DNA of 64,000 nt, taken from positions 8,905 to 72,904 of the forward strand of contig DATJVC010000025.1 of assembly GCA_035501935.1 (NCBI GenBank). The letters are read 5' to 3'. This document shows positions 10,034 to 61,129 of the stretch, piece after piece. Made by a program: the position numbers and the translations under genes. Position 1 is the first letter of the stretch. Every line of letters starts with the position of its first letter. The notes under the pieces were generated by a model. It did no database searches. It was given only the letters and a program-made list of their open reading frames with translations, and was not told the DNA's origin. Source of the DNA: Gammaproteobacteria bacterium. GTDB lineage: Bacteria > Pseudomonadota > Gammaproteobacteria > JAJPIJ01.

Positions 10034-10483
10034 ATGCGTAACCTCATTAGATCACTTCTGAGCCTCACCCAATCATTGGACTGGCTGGCGCCGCTCATGG
10101 TGCGGCTGTTTTTCGGTTATTTCTGGCTGGAAACCGGTTGGGCCAAGCTGCACAACCTTGACGCAGCCACCGCCCGCTTCGTCGACTGGGGGATTCCGTT
10201 CCCATCCTTCAACGCACCGTTCTCGGCCGGCGCGGAATTCGTCTTCGGCGGACTGCTTATGGTGGGTTTGCTCACGCGATTCTCCTCAATCGCGCTGCTC
10301 ATCAACATGGTCGTCGCCATTGCCCTGGTGGTCATCAAGAATGTCGGTAGCTTCGACGACTTCGTCGAGTTGGATGAATTCACTTACATCCTGATTTTCT
10401 TCTGGCTTGCGATGGCCGGTCCCGGCAAAGCCAGCCTCGATGCGATATTCGGCCCCCGCTTGGGACTGGTGCCAGCCCGGTAG
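10034..10483 (+). CDS. DoxX family membrane protein
   Basis: Four-TM DoxX pattern. SD GGAG. Confidence 0.75.
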   Translation: MRNLIRSLLSLTQSLDWLAPLMVRLFFGYFWLETGWAKLHNLDAATARFVDWGIPFPSFNAPFSAGAEFVFGGLLMVGLLTRFSSIALLINMVVAIALVVIKNVGSFDDFVELDEFTYILIFFWLAMAGPGKASLDAIFGPRLGLVPAR

Positions 10484-17588: not shown

Positions 17589-17623
17589 GCATTGGCCCCA
17601 CAGAATCCATGGAGAGAGTACAC

Positions 17624-17959
17624 ATGAAAACGTTGTTAATGATCACGAGCGCCATGATGCTGTGCCTGCTGTCATTGACTGCCCGGGCGGAGGGCGATTA
17701 CGCGGCGGGGCAGCAGAAGGCCAAGGAAATCTGTGCCGCCTGCCACAACGCCGACGGCAACAGCACCAACGCGATGTATCCCAAGCTGGCCGGCCAGTGG
17801 GAAAGCTACATCGTTCAGGCCCTGAAGGAATACAAGTCGGGCGAGCGCAAAAATCCGATCATGGGCCCGATGGCCGCCCCGCTCACGGAACAGGAAGTCG
17901 AGAACGCCGCCGTGTATTTCTCGCAGCAAAAACCCGCGGTGTTCGTCCTCCAGCGTTGA
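17624..17959 (+). CDS. Monoheme class I cytochrome c (second c4-like half)
   Basis: Signal peptide, CAACH motif, paralogous to the upstream gene. SD GGAGAG. Confidence 0.75.
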   Translation: MKTLLMITSAMMLCLLSLTARAEGDYAAGQQKAKEICAACHNADGNSTNAMYPKLAGQWESYIVQALKEYKSGERKNPIMGPMAAPLTEQEVENAAVYFSQQKPAVFVLQR

Positions 17960-17994
17960 ACCGAAGCAGTTTGATCCAGAAGCAACACCGATAC

Positions 17995-18022
17995 GGCCCG
18001 GATTTCCGGGCCGTCGTTTTTT
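17995..18022 (+). terminator. Rho-independent terminator after the cytochrome c pair
   Basis: cggcccgga/tccgggccg stem followed by TCGTTTTTTG. Confidence 0.6.
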
Positions 18023-18058
18023 GCATCACACTTTCTTATCGCCCATGATTAAGCAATC

Positions 18059-18559
18059 ATGGTACGTCCCTTTAAATTCCGGCTCTCTCAACTCCCCATG
18101 CTCGACGCCGAGATCGAAAACCTGAGCCAGCGCCGGCAGGCCCTGGAGGCAGAAACCCAAGGCAAGTGGCTCACCGAATTGACGGACACCGAGACCAAAC
18201 TCGCGGACTTGAACCAGGACCTCATCAAGGCCCAGAACCGCTACACCTTGCAACAACTGGCCGCCCCCGTAGCCGGCACCGTCCAGCAACTGGCCCTCCA
18301 CACGATCGGTGGCGTAGTCACCCCTGCCCAGGAACTCATGCGCATCGTTCCTGAAGAGGACAGTATCCAAATCGAGGCCTGGGTCGAGAACAAGGACATC
18401 GGCTTTGTCCATGACGGCCAGAACACTGAAATCAAGGTAGAGACCTTCCCGTATACCAAATATGGCACCCTCACCGGCCGGCTCATCAAAGTATCCACTG
18501 ATGCCATCACCGAAATGAAGGAACTTCAGGTCGATAAGGATCACCGAAATGAAAAATAA
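18059..18559 (+). pseudogene. hlyD: hlyD remnant: the central/C-terminal ~165 aa of a type I secretion membrane-fusion protein. It lacks about 300 N-terminal and about 60 C-terminal residues.
   Basis: Aligns to E. coli HlyD residues ~300-440 (APVAGTVQQLALHTIGGVVTPAQELM...NKDIGF...KVETFPYTKYG). No TM/N-domain upstream, since the cytochrome terminator abuts it. The ORF ends at a 14-bp duplicated junction. Confidence 0.6.
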
Positions 18560-19382
18560 TTTATCTCGGGTTCCGTTGCTTGCTTTCGTTTCCCCCCTTT
18601 TAGTTTCTATGGCGGTTTACGCAGATGATTATTTACTTGATCCAGCGCCTGTGTATTACCAAGGCACGGCGCATGTTGAGACTCCATACGAAAAGCCGAC
18701 CGACTCCGGTGTTTGTGAGCTTTATCTGGAGAATCTGCGATATTTCGCAAAACAAAATATACCCATGTCCTGCGATAGACCTATAGCGCCACATTTGAAG
18801 AAGAAAATCCATGATGTAGCGTGGGAGAACCTGGATCCAGCACGGTATCCAGATCTGTTTAATGCAGTAGTTGCCGCTACTTTCCCGCCTTCAGGCGGGG
18901 GCGTGAAGCGCTGGAGTGAGGAAGTAAAAAAAGGTGTTGCTGTATTCCGGCGAGCCAAATTGCAACTGAAAGGGTATCCAACTTTTATGGGCACTTCCGG
19001 TGTAGGTACATCGCCGCCTCCACGCCCGATCGCATTTAATATTGTGCAATTTGGCATCAACCATAATGATCCAAACAGCCCTGATCCAGTATGGCGCTGC
19101 TATCCAATTCGTGGAAAGAAAGAAGGGCACGAACCAACTGACCTTCGTTTCTTTATTGTTACTGAAGATCTGACGAAAATGTACGATCAACTACGCGACA
19201 TTAATACAGGCCACACGGGAGACTATATAAAAATTATCAACACTCATCCTTATGTTGAAAGTTCATATACTGACACAGCAAATATACAAGAAATACAGTT
19301 ATCCGAAATCCAGACTAAATTCCCAGTTCATCTCGAGCCGGTTTGCCTTTACCGCTTCGATTTCATAGACAAAGGGCGGTAA
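18549..19382 (+). CDS. Orphan secreted hypothetical protein encoded on low-GC (~45%) inserted DNA
   Basis: Sec signal peptide MKNNLSRVPLLAFVSPLLVSMAVYA. No recognisable domain. Sharp GC drop relative to the flanks. Confidence 0.55.
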   Translation: MKNNLSRVPLLAFVSPLLVSMAVYADDYLLDPAPVYYQGTAHVETPYEKPTDSGVCELYLENLRYFAKQNIPMSCDRPIAPHLKKKIHDVAWENLDPARYPDLFNAVVAATFPPSGGGVKRWSEEVKKGVAVFRRAKLQLKGYPTFMGTSGVGTSPPPRPIAFNIVQFGINHNDPNSPDPVWRCYPIRGKKEGHEPTDLRFFIVTEDLTKMYDQLRDINTGHTGDYIKIINTHPYVESSYTDTANIQEIQLSEIQTKFPVHLEPVCLYRFDFIDKGR

Positions 19383-19538
19383 CATTAAGGGACGTACCAC
19401 CATTGTTTTCGAGGATTGAGGCATTAAAGATGTTGGGTTTGCTTCGTTTATGTGAGGGGAACATTAAGGGACGTACCACTATTGTTTTCGAGGATTGAGG
19501 CATTAAAGATGCTGGGTTTGCTTCGTTTATGTGAGCGA
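19381..19538 (+). repeat. Two tandem copies of a 79-bp unit with 3-4 mismatches. Each encodes the mini-ORF MLGLLRLCE... behind a GAGG SD.
   Basis: aacattaagggacgtaccac[c/t]attgttttcgaggattgaggcattaaagatg[t/c]tgggtttgcttcgtttatgtgag repeated at 19381 and 19460. A hairpin GCTTCGTT...AACGAAGC forms at the 3-prime end of copy 2. Confidence 0.8.
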
Positions 19539-19557
19539 ACGAAGCTGCGCCCCCATT

Positions 19558-20622
19558 ATGAGCGCAACCTCTAATTCCACGCCGGCGCGAATGGGCTACC
19601 GCCTGCCGGCGGAATGGGAGCCGCATCAAGCAGTGTGGTTCTCCTGGCCGCACAATCGCGAGTCATGGCCCGGCAAGTTCGAGACCGTCGAGCCGGTGAT
19701 GACTCAGGCGGTGGCGGCGATCCAGCAGAGCGAGACCGTGCGCATCAACGTGCTCGACGCCGCGCATGAAGCTCATGTGCGTGGTGTACTGGCAGCACAT
19801 CGTGTCAGCACGAACAACCTCCTCTTCCACCACTTCCCCACCAATGACGCCTGGTGCCGGGATCATGGCGCAATTTTCGTCGTGCGCGAGCAGGCCGGAC
19901 GCCGCGAACTGGCGGCAACGCACTGGGACTACAACGCCTGGGGAGATAAATATCCACCCTTCGATCGCGATCAGGAGATTCCACGACGTATGGCCGAGGC
20001 GCTGGCTGTGCCCCGGTTTGAGGGCGGCATGGTGCTGGAAGGCGGCTCCATCGAAACCAACGGCGCCGGTACCCTGCTGACGACCGAACAATGCCTGCTC
20101 AACTCCAACCGCAATCCGGGGATGAGCCGCGCGGAGATAGAGCAGCGGCTGCGCGATTTTCTGGGCGTGCAGACCATTCTCTGGCTGGGCGAAGGCATCG
20201 TCGGCGACGACACCGATGGCCATATCGACGATCTCACCCGCTTCGTGGCGGAAGATACTGTGGTCACGGTCGTCGAAGATGACCCGACGGACGCCAATTA
20301 CGCCGTATTGCAGGACAATCTGCGGCGTCTAAAGACCATGCGACTGCCAGGTGGACGCTCGCTAAACATCATCAATCTCCCGATGCCGGAACCGGTGATT
20401 TACGACGGCCAGCGCCTGCCGGCGAGCTACGCCAATTTCTACACCGGCAACACCGTGGTGCTGACGCCGGTGTTCAACTGCGCGCAGGATGCGCGGGCGC
20501 TGTCTATACTTGAACAATGCTTCCCCGGGCGGCGCGTCGTGGGTATTGATTGCACCGATTTGGTGTGGGGGTTGGGGGCTTTCCATTGCCTGACCCAACA
20601 AGTCCCCGCCACAGGCCGCTGA
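19558..20622 (+). CDS. aguA: Agmatine deiminase
   Basis: RLPAEWEPH...WFSWPH N-terminus and porphyromonas-type peptidyl-arginine deiminase fold motifs. Start ambiguous among 19531, 19558 and 19591. Confidence 0.8.
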   Translation: MSATSNSTPARMGYRLPAEWEPHQAVWFSWPHNRESWPGKFETVEPVMTQAVAAIQQSETVRINVLDAAHEAHVRGVLAAHRVSTNNLLFHHFPTNDAWCRDHGAIFVVREQAGRRELAATHWDYNAWGDKYPPFDRDQEIPRRMAEALAVPRFEGGMVLEGGSIETNGAGTLLTTEQCLLNSNRNPGMSRAEIEQRLRDFLGVQTILWLGEGIVGDDTDGHIDDLTRFVAEDTVVTVVEDDPTDANYAVLQDNLRRLKTMRLPGGRSLNIINLPMPEPVIYDGQRLPASYANFYTGNTVVLTPVFNCAQDARALSILEQCFPGRRVVGIDCTDLVWGLGAFHCLTQQVPATGR

Positions 20623-20881
20623 AAATCTATTACGGAGCCCGTCTGCGTTGTTGCTGCTCGCTCGAAAGCTCGCCGTACTGCCTTTGTACTCTCCCGCTTT
20701 CTCGCTCTCGGCGCCTGGCAGCCGTGCTTCCTCATGACGATTTACATCTGCCTGTTAACGAATCTCAACTGCTCGGCATCAGATTCACACAAAAAACACT
20801 TGCTGTTGACGGCTATTTACCCTACATTTCGCGCAAAATTTCCTCATCACACAAAAAATATGGCCAACCACAGGAACGGGA

Positions 20882-21877
20882 ATGAAAAATACGGCAGCGG
20901 TCGCTGAATTCATCCGCCATCACTACCGTCATTTCAACGCCGCCGCCCTGATCGACGCCGCCAACGGCTACATCGACCTGCTTGAAGACAACGGCAAGAT
21001 GTTCATGACCCTGGCCGGCGCCATGAGCACCGCTGAACTTGGCTTGTCGCTGGCGGAGATGATCCGGCAGGACAAAGTCCATGCCATAACCTGCACGGGC
21101 GCCAACCTTGAGGAGGACCTCTTCAACCTCGTGGCGCACGATCACTACGTCCGCCTCCCCCGATACCGCGATCTCACTCCCGAAGACGAGGAGAAGCTGC
21201 TGCAGCGCCATTTAAACCGGGTCACGGATACCTGCATCCCCGAGGATGAAGCCATCCGGCGCCTTGAAAAGGCCGTTTTAAAGGAGTGGACTGCCGCCGA
21301 CAAAAAAGGCGGAAGTTACTTTCCCCACGAATTCCTGTACCGCGTCATCAAAAGCGGCGCATTGGAAAAGCATTATCAAATCGACCCCCACGACAGCTGG
21401 CTGGTGGCCGCCTGCGAGGCCGATCTGCCGCTATTCGTCCCTGGCTGGGAAGACTCCACGCTCGGCAACATCTACGCCAGCCACTGCGTCAGCGGCACCA
21501 TCAAAAATGTTCACACGGTGCGGTCCGGCATCGAATACATGGTGTCGCTGGCACGGTGGTATCAGGCGACCTGTCGCGAGCATCCCATCGGCTTCTTCCA
21601 GATCGGCGGCGGCATCGCCGGCGACTTCCCGATTTGCGTAGTCCCGATGCTGGAGCAGGATTTGCAGATCCGGGACATCCCGCGCTGGAGCTACTTCTGC
21701 CAGATCAGCGACTCGACCACCAGTTACGGCTCCTATTCCGGCGCCGTGCCAAATGAGAAGATCACCTGGGGTAAATTGTCGGTGAAAACGCCCAAATACA
21801 TCATCGAGTCGGACGCCACCATTGTGGCTCCGCTCATTTTTGCCTGCGTGCTGTCTCCCCCGGGCCGGAAGATTTAA
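20882..21877 (+). CDS. Deoxyhypusine synthase-like protein, a probable homospermidine synthase-type polyamine enzyme
   Basis: DHS-family NAD-binding motifs (TCTGANLEEDL, GGGIAGDF). Stop overlaps the speA start (TAATG). Confidence 0.7.
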   Translation: MKNTAAVAEFIRHHYRHFNAAALIDAANGYIDLLEDNGKMFMTLAGAMSTAELGLSLAEMIRQDKVHAITCTGANLEEDLFNLVAHDHYVRLPRYRDLTPEDEEKLLQRHLNRVTDTCIPEDEAIRRLEKAVLKEWTAADKKGGSYFPHEFLYRVIKSGALEKHYQIDPHDSWLVAACEADLPLFVPGWEDSTLGNIYASHCVSGTIKNVHTVRSGIEYMVSLARWYQATCREHPIGFFQIGGGIAGDFPICVVPMLEQDLQIRDIPRWSYFCQISDSTTSYGSYSGAVPNEKITWGKLSVKTPKYIIESDATIVAPLIFACVLSPPGRKI

Positions 21878-23907
21878 TGAGCACGCCGCAACCCCTGCCC
21901 TCGCCAGCGGCTGCCGAATCGCCGGGCTGGACCGCCCAGGACGCGGAGGATTTGTACCGCATGCGCCAATGGGGCGACGGTTTCTTCTTCGTCAATGAGC
22001 GCGGGCACGTGGCCGTGCACCCGCTGAGCGATCAGGAGCTGAGCATAGACATCGCCGACGTGGTGCAGGACCTGCGCAACCGCAAGGTGAAGTTTCCAAT
22101 CCTGCTGCGATTCCAGGACGTGCTGCAGGCGCGCGTCGTGCGTCTCAACACCGCCTTTCGCGAAGCCATCGAGGGGGCGGGCTACCAGAACCATTATCAA
22201 GGCGTCTATCCCATCAAGGTCAACCAGCTGCACGAAGTGGTCGAAGAAGTCGTGGAGGCCGGCAAGCCGTTCAAGATGGGTTTGGAATGCGGCTCCAAGG
22301 CGGAACTCATCGCTGCGCTGCCGCACATGATGGACGACGAGGCGCTGTTGATCTGCAACGGCTACAAGGACGCCGTCATGCTGCGTTTGATTCTGGCCGC
22401 ACAGCAGATCGGCAAGAACGTCATTCCGGTCATGGAGAAATACGGCGAATTCGAGCACTTGCTGCGGCTGGCCCGCGATCTGAATGTCACGCCGCGTTTC
22501 GGCGTGCGCGTGCGCCTGGGCACCAGCGGCGCCGGCAAATGGGCGGAGTCCGGCGGGGATCAGTCCAAATTCGGCATCTCCATACCGGAGCTGGTCAATC
22601 TCGTCAGCCATCTCAAGGCGGATGGACTGAACGAGTCGCTGGTGCTGCTGCATTTCCACCTCGGCAGCCAGATCGCCGACGTGCAAATCCTGAAAAAGGC
22701 AGTCAAGGAAATCGCGCAAATATACGTGCAACTGCTGAAACGCGGCATGCCGCTGAAATACGTCGACGTCGGCGGCGGCCTGGGCGTCAACTACGAGGCG
22801 GGCTACGGCGGCGAGGAAAACAGCATCAATTACAGTCTGCGCGAATACGCCAACGCCGTGGTGTATTCGATGAAGGAGGTCTGCGACGAGGAGCAGAGCC
22901 CGCATCCGATCCTGATCTCGGAGAGCGGACGCGCCATCACCGCGCATCATTCCGTGTTGATCGTCGAGGCCCTGGGCGCCTACCGCAAGGACACGGTGGA
23001 GGACAACTTCATGCCGGCGCCGGAACACAACATCGTGGTCCGGCAATTGTTTGACACCCTCGCCCGCGTGCGCCAGCTCGCCGCCAACAAGCGCCGCAAG
23101 AATCCGCCGCTGGCCGAGTTGATGGAGAACTATCACGACGCCGTCGAGAAACGCCAGGAGGCCGACACTCTTTTCAACCTCGGCTATCTGCCCATGGAGG
23201 AGAAGGCGGTTGCCGAACGGCTGTACTGGACCATCTGCCGGGATATCGACAGGCAGGTCAAGAAGGCGCCCAAACCGGAATTGGTGCCGGTCGAGCTGCG
23301 CGCACTGGATGATCACTTGGTCGATCAATTTCTGTGCGATTTTTCCGTGTTCCAATCCATCCTTGACCACTGGGCCATCGGCCAGCGTTTTCCCATCCTT
23401 CCCATCCGTGGCCTCGACTGCCGCCCCACCCGTCGCGCCGTGCTGGTCGACCTGACCTGCGATTCGGACGGCAAGGTTTCACATTACGTCTCCTCGAATA
23501 CGGACAAGGACTTTCTGGAACTGCACGACTTTAAAAATGACGACCCTTACGACCTGGGCTTCTTTTTGATGGGCGCCTACCAGGACATCATGGGTGACGC
23601 GCACAACCTGTTCGGCCGCGTCTCCGAGGCGCACATTTATGCCGATGCCGCCGAGCCGGGTGGCTATTACATCGAAAAGATCATCCCCGGCACCTCCGTG
23701 CAGGAAATGCTGGCGCTGGTGCAGTATTTCCCCAACGACCTGCAGCGGCGCATGAACGACCTTATCAAGCAAAAAATAGACGAGGGTCGCATCCGTCCCA
23801 AGGCCGGCGTGGATTTGCTGGATCAATACATGCAGTGTTTCGCGCAAAGCACCTACTACGAACCCGCCACCCGGGAAACCCCGCCGAACAACGGCAATTC
23901 CGCATGA
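21877..23907 (+). CDS. speA: Biosynthetic arginine decarboxylase
   Basis: Full-length match to SpeA with the PLP-binding region and an N-terminal extension, 676 aa. Confidence 0.9.
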   Translation: MSTPQPLPSPAAAESPGWTAQDAEDLYRMRQWGDGFFFVNERGHVAVHPLSDQELSIDIADVVQDLRNRKVKFPILLRFQDVLQARVVRLNTAFREAIEGAGYQNHYQGVYPIKVNQLHEVVEEVVEAGKPFKMGLECGSKAELIAALPHMMDDEALLICNGYKDAVMLRLILAAQQIGKNVIPVMEKYGEFEHLLRLARDLNVTPRFGVRVRLGTSGAGKWAESGGDQSKFGISIPELVNLVSHLKADGLNESLVLLHFHLGSQIADVQILKKAVKEIAQIYVQLLKRGMPLKYVDVGGGLGVNYEAGYGGEENSINYSLREYANAVVYSMKEVCDEEQSPHPILISESGRAITAHHSVLIVEALGAYRKDTVEDNFMPAPEHNIVVRQLFDTLARVRQLAANKRRKNPPLAELMENYHDAVEKRQEADTLFNLGYLPMEEKAVAERLYWTICRDIDRQVKKAPKPELVPVELRALDDHLVDQFLCDFSVFQSILDHWAIGQRFPILPIRGLDCRPTRRAVLVDLTCDSDGKVSHYVSSNTDKDFLELHDFKNDDPYDLGFFLMGAYQDIMGDAHNLFGRVSEAHIYADAAEPGGYYIEKIIPGTSVQEMLALVQYFPNDLQRRMNDLIKQKIDEGRIRPKAGVDLLDQYMQCFAQSTYYEPATRETPPNNGNSA

Positions 23908-26770: not shown

Positions 26771-27757
26771 TCAGGCACGTAGCGTATCGAATGCCATGAC
26801 TTCGTCCAGGCGATGGCGGTGGGCGGCGATCATGACCAGTCTGTCAAAACCCAGGGCCACACCGGAACAGGCAGGTAATCCATGTTCCAATGCCGCCAGC
26901 AGACGTTCATCAACGGGCATCACGGCAAGACGCCGTGCCTGGCGCGCGTTGTTATCGTCTTCGAAACGTCGGCGCTGCTCTCCGGCATCGCGCAATTCTT
27001 CGAAGCCGCTGGCTATTTCGATACCGTTGATGAAGAGTTCAAACCGCGCCGCCACGGGCGGGTCTTCGTCGGGAATGATGCGAGCGAGCGCCGCCTGGCT
27101 CGCGGGGAAGTGGCAAAGAAACAACGGCCGGTCCTTGCCCAATTTCGGTCCAACCACCCAGCTCAATACCCAGTCCAGGCAATCATCGCGTCCCCACTCA
27201 TCAACGATTGCCGTGCCTGACCCCAAACGCTGCACTGTCCTTCGCAACTCGTCGTCATGAACGGCCAGCGGGTCGAATCCCGCATGTTCCTTGAAGGCGG
27301 TGGCGTAGGTCGTGCGATCGCAGTAGTCCGTTCGCAGCAACCATGTCAGCAGGTCTTCGATTTCCCCCATAAGGTCGTGCATGTCAAAGCCCGGCCGGTA
27401 CCATTCAAGCAACGTAAATTCCGGATTGTGCAATCCGCCCGATTCGCCGTTGCGGAAGGCCTTCGTAATTTGATAGATGGGGCCGGCGCCCGCCGCCAGT
27501 AATCGCTTCATGGCATATTCCGGTGAAGTTTGCAGACAAAGCCCCGTGGGCGTGGATTGCCCCGGCAGCACGCATTCCGCGCGCAGGTTTTCCAGATGCG
27601 GATCTGTGACTCCGGCCGCTGCAAGCAGTGGTGTTTCCACCTCCATCACCTGCCGGTCGGAGAAAAAGGCACGGACGCGTTCCAACAATCCAGCGCGCAA
27701 CTTGAGCACGTCCAGCGACGCGCCGGGCCGCCAATCGGATGGGGTTGCCGGGCCCAC
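26771..27757 (-). CDS. epmA: EF-P--(R)-beta-lysine ligase EpmA (PoxA/GenX)
   Basis: Class II aaRS-like motifs (FELFINGIEIASGFEEL, GVALGFDRLVM). GTG start 17 nt after the efp stop. Confidence 0.8.
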   Translation of the reverse strand: MGPATPSDWRPGASLDVLKLRAGLLERVRAFFSDRQVMEVETPLLAAAGVTDPHLENLRAECVLPGQSTPTGLCLQTSPEYAMKRLLAAGAGPIYQITKAFRNGESGGLHNPEFTLLEWYRPGFDMHDLMGEIEDLLTWLLRTDYCDRTTYATAFKEHAGFDPLAVHDDELRRTVQRLGSGTAIVDEWGRDDCLDWVLSWVVGPKLGKDRPLFLCHFPASQAALARIIPDEDPPVAARFELFINGIEIASGFEELRDAGEQRRRFEDDNNARQARRLAVMPVDERLLAALEHGLPACSGVALGFDRLVMIAAHRHRLDEVMAFDTLRA

Positions 27758-27773
27758 GCAAGCCGCCGCGCGG

Positions 27774-28343
27774 CTATTCCTTGACGCGTGAGGAATATTG
27801 ACCGGTGCGGGTATCAATACGGATTATTTCGTTGTTATTGATGAAGAGCGGCACCTTGACCATGGCGCCGGTCTCCAGTTTGGCGGGCTTGGAACCGCCG
27901 GTCACCGTGTCGCCACGCACGCCTGGATCCGTTTCCACGATCTTCAGGTTCACGAACGCCGGCGGCTGTATGGTCAGCGGTACGCCGTTCCACAACGTGA
28001 CGATACAAGTCTCCTCGCCCTTCAACCACTGCGCCGCGTCAGTCATCGCCGTGCGGCTGGCGGCAATCTGCTCGAAGTTCTGTGGGTTCATGAAGTGCCA
28101 GAATTCGCCGTCACTGTAAAGATACTGCAATTCCACGTCCACGACATCGGCGCCCTCGCAGGTGTCTCCTGATTTGAAGGTGCGCTCCAGCATGCGGCCG
28201 GTCTTGAGATTGCGCAGTTTGACGCGATTGAACGCCTGTCCCTTGCCGGGTTTGACGTATTCGTTTTCCAGGACGTTATAGGGATCGCCGTCGATCATCA
28301 GCTTCAATCCGGCCTTGAATTCGTTGGTGCTGTAGGTGGTCAT
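27774..28343 (-). CDS. efp: Elongation factor P
   Basis: Near-colinear with E. coli EF-P, including the KPGKGQAF loop that is beta-lysylated at Lys34. Confidence 0.9.
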
Positions 28344-28380
28344 GTCGTCTTCCAGGTGAAAATGGGTTAAAAAGACGCGC

Positions 28381-29397
28381 ATGATAACCCAAGCCGCCGT
28401 TTCGTTTCAGCCTCCATCTCAGTCCGCGTGGCAAAAAGCGCTTGCCGAAGCCATTTCCAGCCCCTTGGAGCTGCTGCAACTGCTGGAAATCGATCCCGCG
28501 GTCGCAGGGTTCAGATTGTCCGCGGATATCCGATTCAGACAACGCGTGCCGCGTGGTTTCGCCGCGCGCATGCGCAAAGGTGACCCGCTTGATCCCCTGC
28601 TGCTCCAGGTATTGCCCCTGGCCGAGGAGGATGCGGAAATTCCCGGATTCCTTGTCGATCCGGTGGGTGATCTCAAGGCCGAGACCGTGCCCGGGATGCT
28701 GCACAAATACCACGGCCGCGCGCTCATCGTCATCACCGGCGCCTGCGCCATCCATTGCCGCTATTGCTTCCGCAGACACTTTCCCTACGGGGACTCCAAC
28801 CCTTCCGCTGATCACTGGCGGCGCGTACTGGAGTATCTGCGCGGCGATGGCTCCATTACCGAGGTGATTCTGAGCGGTGGTGACCCGTTGTCGCTGCCCG
28901 ATGCCCGACTCGCGGACCTGGCGCAGGCACTGGCCGAGATTCCCCACCTGAAACGGCTGCGCGTGCACACCCGCCTGCCGGTGGTGCTGCCTGAACGTGT
29001 CGTCGATTCATTGCTGGCGTGGCTTGTCGGCACACGCTTGCACCCGGTCATGGTCATACATGCCAATCACGCCAATGAAATCGATGATGCCGTCCGTGCC
29101 GGACTGCGGCTGTTGCGTGACGCCAGAGTACCCCTTTTGAATCAGTCCGTGCTGCTCAAGAACATCAACGATAGCGTTGAGGCGTTGTGCGATTTGAACG
29201 AGGCGCTGTTTGAGGCTGATGTGCTGCCCTATTATCTGCATCTGCTCGATCCCGTACAGGGCTCCGCCCATTTCAATATCGACGATGCGGCTGCCCACAG
29301 GCTGCTCGATGCCATGCGCGCCCGGCTTCCCGGTTATCTCGTGCCGCGGCTGGTACGCGAAATTGCCGGTTTACCCTATAAACTTCTCTTCAAATAG
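28381..29397 (+). CDS. epmB: EF-P beta-lysylation protein EpmB (lysine 2,3-aminomutase-like radical SAM)
   Basis: [11 protein letters not shown] radical-SAM cysteine motif. Divergent from efp. Confidence 0.85.
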
Positions 29398-29429
29398 CCA
29401 GAAACGGCCGAGTGAACCAGGGGGGACCC

Positions 29430-30485
29430 ATGCCTTATCAATACAACCGGAAGCATGCCAGCCTGATCGATGCCGCCATTGAACGGTGGCAGGCGGAGGG
29501 ACTGCTGGAGACGGAAACCGCCGCGCGGCTCAAGGCCAGTTACCAGGCGGTGCCGTTTGATTGGGGACGGTTGGCCAAATACGCCTTCTGGGCGGCGTTG
29601 GCATGCACACTCATCGCCGTGGGGTCGGTATTCAGCGATCGCCTGCTCATGGAACTGCTGGCCCAGCTTTTCAATGCACCGGAATCCGTAAAGGCGCTGT
29701 TTTTCACGGTGCTGGCGGCCATGTTTTATTCCTGGGGATCACAGCGCCGCCAGCGCATGCCCGGAAAACGCTATTCCAATGAAGCGGTGTTTTTTCTCGG
29801 CATCGTCTCCACCGCGGCCGCCGTGGCCTTCCTGGGCCGTGCGCTGGATACCGGCAGTGGACACTACTCACTGCTGCTGGCACTTGCCGCCGTCGTGTAT
29901 GGCGTGCTGGGACTATGGTTTCCTTCCGGTCTGGTGTGGGTCTTCGCACTGCTGTCGCTGGGCAGCTGGTTCGGCGCCGAAACCGGCTATATGTCAGGCT
30001 GGGGCGCCTATTATCTGGGCATGAATTACCCGCTGCGCTTCGTGGCCTTCGGCATCGCCCTCATCGCCGCCGGCACCGCCTTCGGCGGCTGGCCGGCGCG
30101 GCGCGCATTTTTGCGCCCGACCCGCGCGATGGGCCTGCTATACCTGTTCATTGCGCTCTGGATCATGTCCATTTTCGGAAATTACGGCGACATCAATGTC
30201 TGGTACCACGTCAAGCAGATCGAATTATTTCACTGGTCGCTGCTCTTTGCGATCGCAAGCGGCGCCGCGATCTGGCATGGGTTGAAGTATGACGACGGCA
30301 TGACCCGCGGTTTTGGCCTTGTGTTTCTGTTCATCAATCTCTACACGCGGTTTTTTGAGTATTTCTGGAACAGCTTGCACAAGGCGGTATTTTTTGCCTT
30401 GCTGGCCGCAAGCCTTTGGTACATCGGCAGCCACGTGGAGCGTATTTGGAGTCTCGGCCGCGCGCCCGTTCCTGAGCGGGCCTAG
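29430..30485 (+). CDS. Polytopic integral membrane protein of unknown function, with 8 or more TM helices
   Basis: G-rich SD. Multiple hydrophobic helices. No catalytic motif recognised. Confidence 0.5.
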   Translation: MPYQYNRKHASLIDAAIERWQAEGLLETETAARLKASYQAVPFDWGRLAKYAFWAALACTLIAVGSVFSDRLLMELLAQLFNAPESVKALFFTVLAAMFYSWGSQRRQRMPGKRYSNEAVFFLGIVSTAAAVAFLGRALDTGSGHYSLLLALAAVVYGVLGLWFPSGLVWVFALLSLGSWFGAETGYMSGWGAYYLGMNYPLRFVAFGIALIAAGTAFGGWPARRAFLRPTRAMGLLYLFIALWIMSIFGNYGDINVWYHVKQIELFHWSLLFAIASGAAIWHGLKYDDGMTRGFGLVFLFINLYTRFFEYFWNSLHKAVFFALLAASLWYIGSHVERIWSLGRAPVPERA

Positions 30486-30486
30486 C

Positions 30487-31113
30487 TCAGGAAGATGAGA
30501 TTTCAGCGGGAGGCCGCTGCTCCGCGTTGATGTAATCGGCGAAACGGCGGTAATCGTCGCGGCCCAGCCACCAAACACGGAAGCGGCCCAGTCTCATGTA
30601 TTCCTGAAAGCGGCGATCGACCAGGCCGTCGCCCGCCAATTGCGACGCCGCCCAGCGCCCGACACGAGGCGCCACGGATTTGATCAAAGCCAGCTGTGTC
30701 GCGCCGAGGCGCGCCGCAAGCCACGCGGCAAGACTGTCGGAACTGGTTCCCCAATCACAATGTATGTCTGTTGCATCATTCGCCATCGACGCGGGCATCC
30801 ATACGGGCACTTCGCGCTGGTCGAGGATATTGCGCAATTCCTTGTCCTGGGACGCAGGCTGCAGACCGGGTTGCAGGCGGACGAGCTCGCGGCCGTATTG
30901 CTCCATGGCCAGCAGCGCCATGCCATGCGCGGTGGCATCGTCGAATCCCGTCTGCTTTTGCGCCGCGCGCACCTTATCGGCGAACGGCCCGCCGCCGGGC
31001 ACGACGACCAGGCGTCCGCCGCCCGTCAGTGCCAACGCATGCAGCCAGCGCCTTAATTCCGGCGCATCATGCAGGCTGCCGCCGACCTTCACCACCCACA
31101 GATCAAACGGCAT
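30487..31113 (-). CDS. Amino acid kinase-family protein (aspartate/glutamate/uridylate kinase fold; small, MfnE-like)
   Basis: VVKVGGSL P-loop-like N-terminus and VVVPGGGPF. 208 aa. Confidence 0.6.
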   Translation of the reverse strand: MPFDLWVVKVGGSLHDAPELRRWLHALALTGGGRLVVVPGGGPFADKVRAAQKQTGFDDATAHGMALLAMEQYGRELVRLQPGLQPASQDKELRNILDQREVPVWMPASMANDATDIHCDWGTSSDSLAAWLAARLGATQLALIKSVAPRVGRWAASQLAGDGLVDRRFQEYMRLGRFRVWWLGRDDYRRFADYINAEQRPPAEISSS

Positions 31114-32497
31114 CCTGGGTCTCGGTGTTCATGAACAGCCTGATCATGCCCGCCGCTTTATCCAGACTTTCCTGGTATTCCGCTTCCATCAGCGAATCCA
31201 TGACGATGCCGCCACCCGCCCAGGCATGCATGAAACCATCGTGGCAGACCAGCGTGCGGATGGCGATATTGGTGTCCATGCCACCGTCGAAGCCAATGTA
31301 TCCGATGGCGCCGCAATAGACGCTGCGGCGATGCGGCTCCAGTTCCTCGATGATTTCCATGGCGCGGAGCTTGGGCGCACCGGTGATGGAACCGCCGGGA
31401 AAACAGCCCCGCAGCAGATCGACTGGATGTCGTCCTTCTGCCAGCTCGCCCCGCACAGTGCTGACCAGATGGTGCACGGTGGCGAAACTCTCGACTGCGA
31501 ACAGGTTCGGCACGCTGACTGAACCGGTGCGGCAGTTCTTGCCGAGATCATTGCGCAGCAGATCCACAATCATGACGTTCTCGGCGCGGTCCTTGAGGCT
31601 GTTGCGCAACTCCTCCATCATTTGTTGATCGCGCAAGGGATCGGCGGATCGCGGCCTAGTGCCCTTGATCGGCTTGGTTTCGACCACGCCGTTTCTCACA
31701 TTAAGAAAACGCTCCGGAGACGAGCTCAACACCTCACCGCCGGGCACGCGTAAAAATGCAGAATACGGCGCCGGATTCAACTGCCGGAGATACCGGTAGG
31801 CATCCCATGGATCACCCTGGGCACGCGCGCTGAAACGCATGGCGAGGTTCACCTGGTAACAATCACCGTCGCGCAGATAACGCTTGATGCGTTCGAAGCG
31901 CTCCGCATATTGCGCATGGCTGAGATTCGGCTTGACCGCCGACAATACGCGGAACTGGGGACGAAACGCCACGGGCGTCGGGGGTGGCTCGGCCACCTCC
32001 AGCAGGCGCAGCCATTCGTCATCCAGCCTGTTGTCTTCGGCACGGCTGATGAAATACGCGCGTTTACCGAGATGATCGATCACCACACAACGCTCATAAA
32101 AACCAATCGCCATGTCCGGCAAGTCTATGTCGTGAATGGCGATGTCAGGCAGATGCTCCACGCGCCGCCCCAGGTCGTAGGCGAAATACCCCATCGCACC
32201 GCCGGTGAACGGCAGTTCCGGATGGCCCGGCAGCGTTTCGCCCAGATGCTGTTTCAGAAGTGCAAAGGGATCCGCGTCGGAAACCTTCGTCTTTCCATCG
32301 GAACAGATTTCAGTCTCATGGCCGCGCGTGATCAGCGTAAGGCGGGGCTCGGCCGCAAAAATATCGAATCTGCCCTGCCTCTGACACAGGCGGTCGCTGT
32401 CCAACAGTACGCACCACGGCCGGCCAGCGAAGGCGTCAAAGCGGGCGGCGCTGTCCTCATGGTAGGACAGCTCCACTATGCGCGGGACATTCAGCAC
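31103..32497 (-). CDS. pabB: Chorismate-utilising enzyme, aminodeoxychorismate synthase component I-like (PabB/TrpE family)
   Basis: C-terminal chorismate-binding motifs SPERF..., GAPK..AMEII..E, GYIG.DG..D. GTG start overlapping the upstream stop. Confidence 0.75.
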   Translation of the reverse strand: MLNVPRIVELSYHEDSAARFDAFAGRPWCVLLDSDRLCQRQGRFDIFAAEPRLTLITRGHETEICSDGKTKVSDADPFALLKQHLGETLPGHPELPFTGGAMGYFAYDLGRRVEHLPDIAIHDIDLPDMAIGFYERCVVIDHLGKRAYFISRAEDNRLDDEWLRLLEVAEPPPTPVAFRPQFRVLSAVKPNLSHAQYAERFERIKRYLRDGDCYQVNLAMRFSARAQGDPWDAYRYLRQLNPAPYSAFLRVPGGEVLSSSPERFLNVRNGVVETKPIKGTRPRSADPLRDQQMMEELRNSLKDRAENVMIVDLLRNDLGKNCRTGSVSVPNLFAVESFATVHHLVSTVRGELAEGRHPVDLLRGCFPGGSITGAPKLRAMEIIEELEPHRRSVYCGAIGYIGFDGGMDTNIAIRTLVCHDGFMHAWAGGGIVMDSLMEAEYQESLDKAAGMIRLFMNTETQDAV

Positions 32498-33534
32498 GAT
32501 GCCTGTCTCAGCATGGCCAGTGCCACGGCGGGTGCGCAAACGGCCGCATGAACGCGCCACCGGCGCGGTATGTCCATCAATTCAGCGTAATCGATATAGG
32601 TATGACCCATCCGGCGCGCCAGTCGTTTGGCAATGAAGCGACCCACACCGGCGCCGACCACCGGCAGCTTGGAAAGTCTGGAAGACTGTGACATCACCCG
32701 TTTCATTTCACGCGCGATGTCATCCTGCTGGATTCCGGCGATGTGGCGCGCCACCCGCCGCCAGTCTTTCATTGAAGCATTGCGCAGGTCGCATCCCAGC
32801 ATGCGCGCCAGGCGACGGGCGCAGTCGCGCGGGTTTTTGCCGCGGCGATCCGCGGTTTCATCTCCGTCATAACGCAGATCGCCGGTCAGCCGGTAGACAT
32901 CAGCCATACCGGCAAAGTGTTCAGCCGCCAGACCCTGCCATGCACCATGAAATCGCACCCGCCGCGCCACCGCCATGATCGGTGTGCGGGCCACGCCGGT
33001 GTATACCAGTTCACCGGTGCGCAAACGGCCGGCGTCCGTCAACCCCCGCGCCGCCACCCGGCCGTTGCGGATGGGAATGATGTCGGTGGTGGTGCTGCCT
33101 ATATCGACCAGCAGTGCCTGCGGCATAATCTTCGCCACCGATGCCGCCGTCGCATGCCAGTTCGCCGATGCGACTTCAGCATGGGCGCGCCGCGCGTTCC
33201 TCGCATCGCACAAACCCCGGTGCAATGAATACACCTGCATGCGCTTTGCATCAATGTGCTGGACGACCATCCGCAGCAGAGTTTGCACGCCCTCTCCGCG
33301 ATCGGCAAACACATCGGCCAGCTCGCCGGTCATGGTGAGGCCATGCAGGCCCCCCCTCAATCGCCAGCGCTGGCAAAGCCGCGACAGCAGACTGTCGAGT
33401 TCATGCAGCCCCCGCCATAAACGACAGGGATATTGCCCGACATGAAGCAATCGGCCCTGCGTGTCCGCGACCGCAAGCTTCAAATGCGCCCCGCCGATGT
33501 CCCAACCTGCGAAGCAGGTTACAGATTCATGCAT
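32491..33534 (-). CDS. Hydantoinase/oxoprolinase N-terminal-like protein (ASKHA fold), of the kind annotated as H4MPT-linked C1-pathway proteins
   Basis: DIGGAHLKLAV and VDIGSTTTDIIPI actin-like ATPase phosphate motifs. 347 aa. Confidence 0.5.
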   Translation of the reverse strand: MHESVTCFAGWDIGGAHLKLAVADTQGRLLHVGQYPCRLWRGLHELDSLLSRLCQRWRLRGGLHGLTMTGELADVFADRGEGVQTLLRMVVQHIDAKRMQVYSLHRGLCDARNARRAHAEVASANWHATAASVAKIMPQALLVDIGSTTTDIIPIRNGRVAARGLTDAGRLRTGELVYTGVARTPIMAVARRVRFHGAWQGLAAEHFAGMADVYRLTGDLRYDGDETADRRGKNPRDCARRLARMLGCDLRNASMKDWRRVARHIAGIQQDDIAREMKRVMSQSSRLSKLPVVGAGVGRFIAKRLARRMGHTYIDYAELMDIPRRWRVHAAVCAPAVALAMLRQASC

Positions 33535-34528
33535 GATGGGGCACCTCCACCCTCACCGTACGGGCCCCCAGCGTACGGGTCGTCGTCGCCTTCCGTTCCA
33601 GGCATGCGTCCAGGATCAATTGTGCGGTATTGATGCCAAGGGAATCGCTCATGGCCACATAACTGGTGGTCAGGCGGGGATTGATTTCCAGCACGACCGG
33701 GCCCGCAACAGTCTCAATGTAATCGACGCCTACGAAACCGCGCAAACCCGGAATGAGGTTCATCAGCAAATCGGCGAGTCCCTGCATGATCGGCCTCTGC
33801 TGCGGACGGGCGTTGACCAACGTGCCGGTTTGTCTCAACTCCATCCCTTCGTGAATCTGTATTTGCTCATTGACCGCCAGCACCCCGGCGTGTCCACGAC
33901 TGCAGAGCAGTGCCAGACTCATCGCCCTGCCCTGCACGTAAGGTTGCATCACCCATGCGCGTCCCTCGTCCGCCGGCCGCCACTCCGAAAGCGCCTCGGC
34001 GTCTTCAAAGAAAAATGTATCTTCGCTGCCGGCCCCATCGTCCGGCTTTACCACGTATCCCCGCCCGCTTTCCGGAAGACGCTGTCCAAGATACACGGTC
34101 TCCGGCACCGCCACGCCGTGGGACGCCAGCGCCCGTATGGTGGCGATCTTGCTTGCCGCCACGGCCACCGCCGCCGATGTACACCCCAACAACAGCCTGC
34201 CCGCATCTTCGACCATGCGATTGAACCGCTCCAGCACGCCGCCGGTTTCGGGTGCGATGATCAATGCCGCGTCCGCCGCTGATATGCATCGCCGCCACAA
34301 ATCCCAGGGTTCGACCCGCACGTTGAGAATCTCCACCTTCTGATCCAACGCCGGCATTCTTGGGTCGCGGGTCACCGTGATTCTGCAGTCGTTCAACGCG
34401 CAAAAATCGCCGAGTGCCGCGCGCAATATCGCGTCGCCTTCGCTGGCAAGTGCGGGCGGCAGGGATTGGCCCGCAAGCCCCCCTCCCGTGATGAATTCAC
34501 ATAGGAATATTTTCACAGGTCGCGGCAT
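33527..34528 (-). CDS. ATP-grasp domain ligase
   Basis: ATP-grasp B/C-domain motifs (YVVKPDDGAGSED, VLEINPR). Overlaps the downstream start by 8 nt. Confidence 0.6.
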   Translation of the reverse strand: MPRPVKIFLCEFITGGGLAGQSLPPALASEGDAILRAALGDFCALNDCRITVTRDPRMPALDQKVEILNVRVEPWDLWRRCISAADAALIIAPETGGVLERFNRMVEDAGRLLLGCTSAAVAVAASKIATIRALASHGVAVPETVYLGQRLPESGRGYVVKPDDGAGSEDTFFFEDAEALSEWRPADEGRAWVMQPYVQGRAMSLALLCSRGHAGVLAVNEQIQIHEGMELRQTGTLVNARPQQRPIMQGLADLLMNLIPGLRGFVGVDYIETVAGPVVLEINPRLTTSYVAMSDSLGINTAQLILDACLERKATTTRTLGARTVRVEVPHHA

Positions 34529-34671
34529 CACCTCAGGAGTGTCGCATTATGGCGCTCGAGGCCGGACTCGACCGCTTCGTCCGGAACGAAACGGCGCGCA
34601 AGCCCCGCACGGGTCCGTCTCGGGGAAGAGACGAACAACCGCACGGATACAGTCACCACCATCGCTCCAGT

Positions 34672-34758
34672 TGGTGCCCAGGGCCGGACTCGAACCGGCA
34701 CGGGGTTTCCCCCAAGGGATTTTAAGTCCCTTGCGTCTACCTGTTCCGCCACCCGGGC
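34672..34758 (-). tRNA. tRNA-Leu (anticodon TAA)
   Basis: Cloverleaf with a long variable arm, 7-nt loop CUUAAAA, CCA end. Confidence 0.85.
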
Positions 34759-34801
34759 TGACACGTACTGGCAAATTATAGGTGATCGTTGATGCAGAAA
34801 G

Positions 34802-34875
34802 TGGAGGCTGGAGTCGGAATCGAACCGGCGTACACGGATTTGCAGTCCGCTGCATGACCACTCTGCCATCCAGCC
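34802..34875 (-). tRNA. tRNA-Cys (anticodon GCA)
   Basis: Cloverleaf, loop CUGCAAA, CCA end. Confidence 0.85.
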
Positions 34876-34931
34876 TTGATAAATGTCGGGTGCCCGCCAG
34901 GCGCACCCCCGAAGCACACCGATTAAAAAAG

Positions 34932-34953
34932 AAAACCCCGATGCCGGGGTTTT
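34932..34953. terminator. Palindromic hairpin aaaaccccgatgccggggtttt between tRNA-Gly and tRNA-Cys (bidirectional terminator-like)
   Basis: GC stem flanked by an A-run and a T-run. Confidence 0.4.
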
Positions 34954-34965
34954 CTTGGGTCAATC

Positions 34966-35041
<76 letters not shown>

Positions 35042-35126
35042 GTGCGTCAGGTCGTATTGTTCACAGCCCCGGCGGAGGTGTCAAGGGCGGATCCAGTGCA
35101 AGGCATATAAAACAACCTCCTGCCGC

Positions 35127-35711
35127 TCAATTCGCTTTTAACTTTGTTTTTTCATTTTTCCCGCCAGCGCGTAATTGCGGCCAGGCGGCCACTAAATAGA
35201 CGAACATCGACCAGAGCGTGAGCAACGCGGCAAGATAAAGCAATCGCAGACCGAGTGCATAGGTATCGATCCCGCCAACCGGGACCCGGTAGAGCATCAG
35301 GATCAGCGCCAGCATTTGCAGGGTGGTCTTGACCTTGCCGAGCACCGAAACCGCCACGCGCCGCCGCGCACCCAGTTCCGCCATCCATTCCCGCAGTGCC
35401 GAGACCGCAATCTCGCGGCCGATGATAACCGCGGTCAGCAGTGCCAGCAGCACGGTCGGATCCTGTTGCAACAAAAGCACCAGCACGACCGCGACCATGA
35501 TCTTGTCGGCGACCGGGTCGAGGAATTCGCCCAGCAGTGAGGTTTGTTTCAGCCGGCGCGCCAGATAACCATCCAGCCAGTCGGTGATCGCTGCGAAGAA
35601 GAAAATCAACGCGGCAGCGGCGTGCGAGCCGCGAAAGGGCAGATAAAACACCACCACGAACACCGGGATCAAAAACAGCCGCAGCAGCGTCAGCGTATTG
35701 GGGAGGTTCAT
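35127..35711 (-). CDS. pgsA: CDP-diacylglycerol--glycerol-3-phosphate 3-phosphatidyltransferase
   Basis: CDP-alcohol phosphatidyltransferase motif DGYLAR...GEFLDPVADK. uvrC-pgsA-tRNA synteny as in E. coli. Confidence 0.85.
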   Translation of the reverse strand: MNLPNTLTLLRLFLIPVFVVVFYLPFRGSHAAAALIFFFAAITDWLDGYLARRLKQTSLLGEFLDPVADKIMVAVVLVLLLQQDPTVLLALLTAVIIGREIAVSALREWMAELGARRRVAVSVLGKVKTTLQMLALILMLYRVPVGGIDTYALGLRLLYLAALLTLWSMFVYLVAAWPQLRAGGKNEKTKLKAN

Positions 35712-39982: not shown

Positions 39983-40121
39983 GTCAACATTCTTTTCCTC
40001 AACTACATTTTTCCGGCCGTAAAAATTATGTGAGCGCCTTCACAAATATGGCTGCCGATTGCTGCAGCGCGCATTGATTATTGTCTATAAGGGTGTCCTC
40101 CCAACGAGACAGGAGAGCACC

Positions 40122-40643
40122 ATGAAAAAGACCTTACTGGCAGTAGCAGCATCGGGTCTGGCGCTGGCCGGTTGCGGCACCACGACCGCGGACCGCACCG
40201 TAAGCGGCGCCGGGATCGGTGCCGGTGCGGGCGCCATCGTGGGCGCGGTGACCAGCCTGTCGGTTCCCGAGGCTGCGGTGCTGGGCGCGGTCGCCGGCGG
40301 CTTGACCGGGGCGTTGACGAAACCTGATCAGGTCAATCTTGGCAGGCCGGCGTGGAGTCAGTCCAGCAATCCGCCACCGGCCTCGCCGACGGCGCAACAA
40401 GGCTCCTCGCAGTATTCAAATTATGCCTATGCGCCGGTGGACTCGGGCACGGTACGGCAGATTCAATCGGCACTCAAACGTCTGGGGCTCTATGACGGCC
40501 AGGTGGACGGCGTTGCCGGACCACGGACCCAAAATGCCATCCGCTCTTATCAGCAGCAAAATGGCCTGGCCGTAAACGGCCAGCCGAGTACGCAACTGCT
40601 TGAACACTTGCGTCAACGCGGTGTCGCCGGCACCAGCGCCTGA
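40122..40643 (+). CDS. Lipoprotein with a C-terminal peptidoglycan-binding (PG_binding_1) domain
   Basis: Lipobox LAGC. Gly-rich linker. IQSALKRLGLYDGQVDGVAGPRTQNAIRSYQ PG-binding motif. SD GGAGAG. Confidence 0.65.
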   Translation: MKKTLLAVAASGLALAGCGTTTADRTVSGAGIGAGAGAIVGAVTSLSVPEAAVLGAVAGGLTGALTKPDQVNLGRPAWSQSSNPPPASPTAQQGSSQYSNYAYAPVDSGTVRQIQSALKRLGLYDGQVDGVAGPRTQNAIRSYQQQNGLAVNGQPSTQLLEHLRQRGVAGTSA

Positions 40644-60604: not shown

Positions 60605-60625
60605 ACTCTCCCCGGACTCTCCGCG

Positions 60626-61129
60626 ATGGACCCGGAACAATTACCGCTACGTGACATCCATCTGCCGCCGTCAATTTCCTGGTGGCCGCCGGCGCCCGGC
60701 TGGTGGCTCTTGTTGCTGGTCATTCTCGGCGCCGGCCTGCTGGCAGGGTATTTCTACCGACGTGAGCGATCCGTCCCCTGGCATCGCATCGCGGAACGCG
60801 AGTTGCAGCTAATCCAACAGCGCTACGAATCCACGCGCGACGCGCATATTCTGGTCGGCGAACTGTCCACCCTGCTACGCCGGGTGTGTTTAAGTCTTTA
60901 TCCGCGCCGGATCGTTGCCGGGCTCACGGGCGAAAACTGGCTGGCCTTCCTCGATCAGATGGCAGGCATGGAGGGCTTCCGGCATGGCGGCGGCCGCGTG
61001 CTTGCCACCGCACCCTATCAAGCCGTGATGCCTGTGGATGCGCGGACATTGCTGAGTCTGTGCGCGGCATGGCTGTGCGCGGTCACGCGTCAGTCTGAAA
61101 ACGACGGGCACCGGCGCCCACATGTTTGA
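60626..61129 (+). CDS. DUF4381-like membrane-anchored protein of Bat operons
   Basis: N-terminal TM helix (WWLLLLVILGAGLLAG), position between DUF58 and the vWA genes. Confidence 0.5.
   Translation: MDPEQLPLRDIHLPPSISWWPPAPGWWLLLLVILGAGLLAGYFYRRERSVPWHRIAERELQLIQQRYESTRDAHILVGELSTLLRRVCLSLYPRRIVAGLTGENWLAFLDQMAGMEGFRHGGGRVLATAPYQAVMPVDARTLLSLCAAWLCAVTRQSENDGHRRPHV

Follow-up and report, generated by a model that had tools for sequence, protein, structure and literature searches.

A probable tetrahydromethanopterin/methylofuran cofactor-biosynthesis operon detached from its usual gene island in an uncultured gammaproteobacterium

We analysed a 64,000-nucleotide stretch of contig DATJVC010000025.1 (assembly GCA_035501935.1, Gammaproteobacteria bacterium), referred to here as the window, and concentrated on four minus-strand genes at positions 30487–34531. 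These genes form, with a probability that we put at about 85%, a translationally coupled cofactor-biosynthesis operon for formaldehyde oxidation linked to tetrahydromethanopterin (H4MPT) and methylofuran. All four open reading frames (ORFs) are present, and in the order of reading they encode an ATP-grasp ligase, a hydantoinase-like protein of the ASKHA fold, a chorismate-utilising enzyme (PabB), and a small protein of the amino-acid-kinase fold. The initial annotation had described them as an operon of unknown product and unassigned function, which overstated the case; the four-gene block is already described and its functions have been assigned by homology, with orf1 named as mfnD, orf9 and orf21 as genes for homologs of MfnF and MfnE, and pabB tied to H4MPT biosynthesis (PMC8141765, PMC5020050, PMC3615186, PMC4109929).

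The hydantoinase-like protein matched the NCBIfam family TIGR03123 with 342.9 bits (cutoff 244.1) over profile positions 2–325 of 327. This family (one_C_unchar_1) contains bacterial Orf9 and is described as "probable H4MPT-linked C1 transfer pathway protein", where C1 stands for one-carbon. All 61 invariant columns of an 18-sequence family alignment were kept in the window protein, including the motifs GWDxGGAH and DxGSTTxD. The only other NCBIfam match was to archaeal MfnF (NF040623; 151.1 bits, below the cutoff of 520), Pfam Hydantoinase_A (PF01968) matched with 79.6 bits, and the structure match was 3c0b (2e-28), a conserved protein of the archaeon Methanococcus maripaludis.

For the ATP-grasp protein, Pfam returned preATP-grasp_3 (PF18301, 82.9 bits) and ATP-grasp_3 (PF02655, 109.5 bits); the top NCBIfam match was MfnD_Meth (NF040722, tyramine-L-glutamate ligase) at 79.1 bits, under the cutoff of 400, and the top solved structure was 3df7, a putative ATP-grasp protein (2.5e-13). 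The kinase passed Pfam AA_kinase (PF00696; 49.3 bits vs a gathering cutoff of 24.9), and its only specific NCBIfam match was MfnE (NF040622; 59 bits, E value 5e-16, residues 6–144), where the cutoff of 300 was not reached. Its structure match was 7qrh, an Asp/Glu/uridylate kinase (1.5e-12); a literature search on PDB entry 7QRH gave no result. Methanocaldococcus jannaschii MfnD (tyramine-L-glutamate ligase), MfnE (kinase of F1-P, an aminomethylfuran phosphate), and MfnF (APMF-Glu synthase) have the same folds as the window trio, and the three archaeal families are its top specific NCBIfam matches. Judged from these scores, the ATP-grasp, kinase, and hydantoinase-like proteins are homologs of archaeal methanofuran enzymes and not members of the archaeal equivalog families. 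The domain assignments in the initial annotation were borne out by Pfam. Its comparison to MfnD and MfnE was sound, and the H4MPT/methylofuran module that it gave as one of two outcomes holds, with the hydantoinase-like protein as the MfnF-like partner.

PabB reached 377.1 bits against NCBIfam TIGR00553 (cutoff 328.4) and remained under every anthranilate and isochorismate synthase cutoff, including that of the trpE_most model (398 bits vs 517.7). It aligned over its full length to Escherichia coli PabB (1k0e; 437 bits, 7e-130), with the segment KPIKGTRPR lying on RPIKGTLPR of 1k0e and the PIKGT lysine on E. coli K274. In PabB enzymology this lysine is the catalytic nucleophile that distinguishes PabB from TrpE; TrpE has an alanine at this position. 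By family score and active-site residue, the chorismate enzyme is a true PabB. Despite the full-length likeness to the E. coli protein, the window pabB stands in what appears to be a C1-cofactor operon and not in a folate context, and among the window ORFs scanned with NCBIfam there was neither a partner glutamine amidotransferase (PabA/TrpG) nor an ADC lyase (PabC).

We investigated conservation of the gene neighbourhood in 80 loci from species-representative genomes, retrieved through an alignment of hydantoinase-like homologs; for the counts, the four window proteins served as tblastn queries and all flanking ORFs were clustered. The sample includes Methylobacillus, Methylophilaceae, Methylomonas, Methylobacter, Methyloprofundus, the USC-gamma lineage, Candidatus Thiodiazotropha, Paraburkholderia, Caballeronia, Gemmatimonadota, and several alphaproteobacteria. 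The ATP-grasp, hydantoinase-like, PabB, and kinase genes occurred in the same order and on the same strand in 30 of the 80 loci; a further arrangement, with hydantoinase-like, PabB, and kinase genes and the ATP-grasp gene undetected at the threshold used, was found in 9 or 10. The other three proteins do not require PabB as a partner, since 14 genomes have the ATP-grasp/hydantoinase-like/kinase trio side by side without it. Where pabB is present between orf9 and orf21, which is the case in about 40 of the 80 species-level genomes, it is so in several phyla. The kinase gene followed the PabB or the hydantoinase-like gene in 54 loci, and in most relatives the hydantoinase-like gene was immediately preceded by the ATP-grasp gene.

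At least one gene of the C1 island (counted as fae, mch, mtdB, mptG, orf5, orf7, orfY, orf17, mfnB, or fhcB) was located within 10 kb of the block in 65 of the 80 loci. NCBIfam assigned representatives of the neighbour clusters to fae, mch, beta-RFAP synthase, a RimK/MptN-like glutamate ligase, a second ATP-grasp protein, a HisA/HisF-related protein, an MfnB-like (5-formylfuran-3-yl)methyl phosphate synthase, and FhcB. The usual layout is mptG-mtdB-orfY-mch-orf5-orf7-fae, followed by a divergent orf17 and then the four-gene block. Some island-bearing metagenome-assembled genomes (MAGs) in the sample (L017, L034, L038, L047, and L065) are titled "Klebsiella pneumoniae" or "uncultured Enterobacteriaceae", labels that look like binning or taxonomy errors because of the gene content of these loci.

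The window itself holds the block without the rest of the island. Using tblastn with all cluster members, we found none of fae, mch, mtdB, mptG, fhcB, mfnB, orf17, orf5, and orf7 in the 64 kb, and NCBIfam scans of 40 further window ORFs gave no C1 gene and housekeeping genes such as pntAB, serS, crcB, rarA, ftsK, speA, and moaB; the earlier observation that fae, mch, and fhc are not in the window thus held in both searches. In the two closest relatives (loci L082 and L083) the block is equally standalone and in the same context.

Genes from the rest of the island were found on a second contig, through a protein search with the orf7-like protein of L002, the nearest island-bearing genome. The match (P0132, 60% identity) is NCBI HTT08899.1, labelled "MAG TPA ... 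[Gammaproteobacteria bacterium]", and the window hydantoinase-like protein, HTT08488.1, carries the same label. Both proteins occur in sequencing run SRR8881005, where P0132 is encoded on a 92–97-kb contig (L084/L085). This contig shows the order beta-RFAP synthase family gene, Mpt_N (MtdB-like) gene, ATP-grasp_3 gene, mch, RimK-family ligase gene, CitG-like orf7, and fae, followed by an unrelated glycosyltransferase gene; the Mch, Fae, and beta-RFAP synthase family genes passed their cutoffs. The tetranucleotide correlation between the second contig and the window was 0.987, the highest of all fetched loci (window thirds among themselves, 0.966–0.983), and the GC content was 0.596 vs 0.595 for the window. 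The second contig very probably belongs to the same MAG, and the genome would then have an H4MPT-linked module.

These results suggest that the ancestral island was split after fae in this lineage and that its orf1-orf9-pabB-orf21 half now lies beside a tRNA cluster. One of the two closest relatives shows the same split within a single metagenome (JGI 3300027706), its island being on Ga0209581_1000120 and its block on Ga0209581_1000212. The gene orf17 (HisA/HisF-like) is missing both beside the four-gene block (34532–34671) and after fae on the island contigs L084 and L086. The sequence-based checks that the initial annotation had outlined gave results in line with a cofactor module: mptG, an mtdB-like gene, mch, and fae in very probably the same MAG, a hydantoinase-like protein that passes TIGR03123 together with a kinase that matches MfnE best (below cutoff), and conservation of the four-gene order and of nearby island genes at the frequencies given above.

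The coordinates of the block and its junctions are summarized in Table 1.

Table 1 Genes, overlaps, and leader of the four-gene block in the window.
Feature	Position	Strand	Remark
ATP-grasp ligase, bacterial orf1 / MfnD-like	33527..34531	-	predicted tyramine- or tyrosine-glutamate ligase
ASKHA/hydantoinase-A-fold protein, bacterial orf9 / MfnF-like	32491..33534	-	predicted coupling of F1-PP and gamma-glutamyl-tyramine
PabB, aminodeoxychorismate synthase component I	31103..32497	-	464 aa, GTG start
Small amino-acid-kinase-fold protein, bacterial orf21 / MfnE-like	30487..31113	-	208 aa, predicted F1-P kinase
8-nt overlap ATGCATGA	33527..33534	-	ATP-grasp stop / hydantoinase-like start
7-nt overlap	32491..32497	-	hydantoinase-like stop / pabB start
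11-nt overlap	31103..31113	-	pabB stop / kinase start
140-nt leader	34532..34671	-	separates tRNA-Leu from the operon

The ORF coordinates, together with ARAGORN and Rfam, confirmed four overlapping minus-strand genes directly after a tRNA Gly-Cys-Leu cluster, as first described, with tRNA-Leu, tRNA-Cys, and tRNA-Gly at 34672–35041 on the same strand and 140 nt upstream of the operon. The overlap range of 8–11 nt reported at that time is correct for the two outer junctions, and the middle one is 7 nt. The longest ORF of pabB extends to 32560; we set its start at 32497 because an independent gene call on an identical contig gives a protein of 464 aa. Similarly, the ATP-grasp gene probably starts at the ATG at 34528, since the N-terminal sequence PRPxKIFxCEF is kept in both L082 and L083. 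Overlaps of identical length (8, 7, and 11 nt) recur in these two relatives, in which the hydantoinase-like protein shares 70% and 64% identity with that of the window; the overlaps are therefore conserved features and not chance, which suggests translational coupling.

The four genes have a GC content of 0.61–0.62 and a GC content at third codon positions (GC3) of 0.71–0.73, the same as their flanks. We rejected horizontal transfer of the block on the basis of these flank-like values and of the position kept in relatives with 64–70% identical hydantoinase-like proteins, and we rejected a decaying remnant because of the intact ORFs and conserved overlaps. Upstream, beyond the tRNA genes, are pgsA, uvrC, and a NUDIX gene; downstream of the kinase gene are a convergent membrane protein gene and then epmB, efp, and epmA. 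The membrane protein gene (29412–30485, plus strand) encodes a predicted multi-pass protein of 357 aa without an NCBIfam match, and a single base separates its stop codon from that of the kinase gene (30485 and 30487). It looks like a lineage-specific insertion, because neither close relative has it at the corresponding site, where L082 shows just a 58-aa ORF and L083 nothing.

An Rfam scan of 30300–35200 found the three tRNAs only, with no riboswitch or other family in the 140-nt leader. Promoter and terminator scans gave sites no more numerous than in shuffled sequence and none in the leader, where no consensus sigma-70 site was found; the predicted fold of the leader was unexceptional (z = −1.75). 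Transcription may start at a promoter within the leader or may continue into the operon from the tRNA genes. Within the tRNA cluster, a strong terminator-like hairpin (12 pairs, then a T-run) is located at 34929–34956 on the minus strand between tRNA-Gly and tRNA-Cys, and the sole sigma-70-like site of the region is at 35056–35084, upstream of tRNA-Gly.

Comparison with described systems places the block among known gene arrangements. In Methylophilaceae and Methylococcales, the orf17-orf1-orf9-pabB-orf21/22 segment of the "archaeal-like" H4MPT/methylofuran island (in Methylobacillus flagellatus KT, orf1 is Mfla_1650; in Methylomonas sp. DH-1, AYM39_08565–08580) contains the same four families in the same order and on the same strand, and the hydantoinase-like and PabB proteins of the window are 46% and 58% identical to those of Methylobacillus sp. 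MM3. Unlike that island, the window block is detached from fae, orf7, orf5, mch, orfY, mtdB, and mptG, which are on the other contig; it has no divergent orf17 upstream, all three of its junctions overlap, and it is flanked by the tRNA Gly-Cys-Leu cluster and epmB-efp-epmA. In Methylomonas sp. DH-1, fae has been reported in a row with two genes for hypothetical proteins and then those for MfnF, aminodeoxychorismate synthase, and a "uridylate kinase" (PMC11533326), and the H4MPT gene list of Methylophilaceae reads "...orf5,7,17,1,9, pabB, orf22..." (Beck et al. 2014, PMC4109929). In Methylosinus, the genes are spread over five separate islands (Matsen et al.).

Hemmann et al. (2021, PMC8141765) described Orf22, Orf21, and Orf9 as homologs of MfnB, MfnE, and MfnF and identified orf1 (Mfla_1650) of M. 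flagellatus as the closer homolog of MfnD. They showed OrfY and Orf5 to be the polyglutamate ligases MyfA and MyfB and orf17 to be needed for methylofuran in Methylorubrum extorquens; Chistoserdova (2016, PMC5020050) likewise wrote "mfnD ... also known as orf1". In the M. extorquens AM1/PA1 cluster (orf9; orf19-orf20-afpA-orf21-orf22), Orf9 and Orf21 are likewise proposed as MfnF and MfnE. Methylorubrum (Methylobacterium) has no recognisable orf1/mfnD, unlike the window, and its orf21 adjoins orf22. Whereas the archaeal enzymes make methanofuran, the bacterial product is methylofuran, which is built on tyrosine or tyramine and bears a long tail of polyglutamate (PMC8141765).

From these homologies, a pathway can be proposed in which the Orf1/MfnD-like ligase would catalyse the ATP-dependent gamma-glutamylation of tyramine or tyrosine, the Orf21/MfnE-like kinase would convert F1-P to F1-PP, and the Orf9/MfnF-like protein would form the ether between F1-PP and the phenol of glutamyl-tyramine to give the methylofuran core. 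The putative MyfA and MyfB of the second contig (orfY/myfA-like and orf5/myfB-like) would then extend this core with glutamate. PabB would convert chorismate to aminodeoxychorismate and so supply p-aminobenzoate (pABA), which MptG would join to phosphoribosyl pyrophosphate (PRPP), the first committed step towards H4MPT.

Several points weigh against a methylofuran/H4MPT operon. The Mfn-like trio scores so far below the archaeal equivalog cutoffs that its substrates are extrapolated, and in the literature cited here we found no biochemical assay for Orf1, Orf9, or Orf21 from bacteria. Co-transcription of the four genes is presumed, as is a promoter. The assignment of both contigs to one MAG is based on accession proximity, a shared sample, and composition, and not on a closed genome. 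Moreover, mfnB (orf22), mfnC, orf17, fhcABCD, pabA/pabC, and the late H4MPT genes were not located, and orf17, the immediate upstream neighbour of orf1 in most relatives, is not at the expected position on either contig. For fhcABCD, mfnB, and orf17, the window and the 21-kb L084 locus gave no match, and no wider search was aimed at fhc or mfnB.

We then weighed other explanations for the block. One of these, which we regard as unlikely, retains the trio as methylofuran genes and makes PabB a housekeeping folate enzyme without a specific H4MPT role. It fits the similarity of PabB, which is greatest to the folate PabB of E. coli; since the window shows no other pabB or trpE, this may be the sole copy, and the block occurs without pabB in 14 genomes. 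However, the position of pabB between orf9 and orf21 in about half of the sampled genomes (roughly 40 of 80) is nearly always near mptG, mch, and fae, pabB appears translationally coupled on both sides in this lineage, and beta-RFAP synthase (MptG) uses pABA directly. Furthermore, the literature counts pabB as an H4MPT-associated gene. The folate and H4MPT roles of PabB are not exclusive, as one pABA pool can feed both cofactors.

The same position of pabB, coupled on both sides here, leaves a slim chance that the Mfn-like enzymes, with their scores well under the archaeal cutoffs, act on an intermediate derived from pABA or chorismate or assemble into a complex with PabB, in which case the accepted methylofuran assignment of Orf1, Orf9, and Orf21 would be partly wrong.

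It is highly improbable that the Mfn-like trio serves the pterin (H4MPT) branch and not the methylofuran branch. TIGR03123 is named only for a probable H4MPT-linked C1 transfer pathway protein, pabB is embedded within the block, and the cited literature is without a bacterial enzyme assay, all of which would suit such a role. On the other hand, the top specific families are MfnD, MfnE, and MfnF, the archaeal members of which have been biochemically assigned to methanofuran (cited in PMC8141765), the kinase gene adjoins an mfnB-like orf22 in some genomes (e.g. L055), and Hemmann et al. placed Orf21 and Orf9 in the proposed methylofuran pathway (PMC8141765).

We give hardly any credence to a new pABA- or chorismate-derived metabolite that an ATP-grasp enzyme builds and that is unrelated to C1 cofactors, the other outcome considered in the initial annotation and now unsupported: the block does stand apart from any C1 gene in the window and its three Mfn-like proteins are under the archaeal equivalog cutoffs, but 14 genomes carry the trio without PabB, the proteins cluster with island-linked copies of 43–66 other loci, their nearest relatives among the 80 loci are the island-linked copies in L002 and L003, and a C1 island is present on the other contig of what we infer to be the same MAG.

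Read as a methylofuran/H4MPT operon, the block matters little beyond correct annotation, being a known, published gene block with a minor rearrangement in an uncultured gammaproteobacterium. The source MAG names the key protein only as "hydantoinase/oxoprolinase family protein". The lineage would carry the main genes for H4MPT and some of those for methylofuran biosynthesis within the formaldehyde-oxidation/detoxification pathway, and it provides one more example of the usual island split in two. The field already knows that the bacterial MfnD-, MfnE-, and MfnF-like steps rest on homology, which is not peculiar to this locus.

Elsewhere in the window, a low-GC patch at 17600–20000 (0.517 vs a window mean of 0.595) is possibly foreign DNA. 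The ORFs at 17662–18048 and 18549–19382 have GC3 values of 0.40–0.47 vs about 0.7 elsewhere, and the 277-aa ORF is without an NCBIfam match. A polyamine cluster follows at 19531–23907 on the plus strand, with an agmatine deiminase-like gene (below cutoff), a deoxyhypusine/homospermidine synthase-like gene (122 bits, below cutoff), and the gene for SpeA, biosynthetic arginine decarboxylase; it lies about 3 kb from epmA-efp-epmB (26771–29397). At 58728–63909, also on the plus strand, a Bat-like operon comprises a MoxR-type AAA ATPase-like gene, a pair of unassigned ORFs, and genes for VWA-domain BatA-like and BatB/TPR-like proteins, with all scores below the curated cutoffs. Weak below-cutoff matches at 10034–10483 and 40059–40643 (both plus strand) were to an HvfX-family maturation protein for Cu-binding ribosomally synthesized and post-translationally modified peptides and to the His-Xaa-Ser repeat protein HxsA. 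On a relative's island contig (L086, 15724–18673), HxsD and two radical S-adenosylmethionine genes are located between IS1595 transposases.

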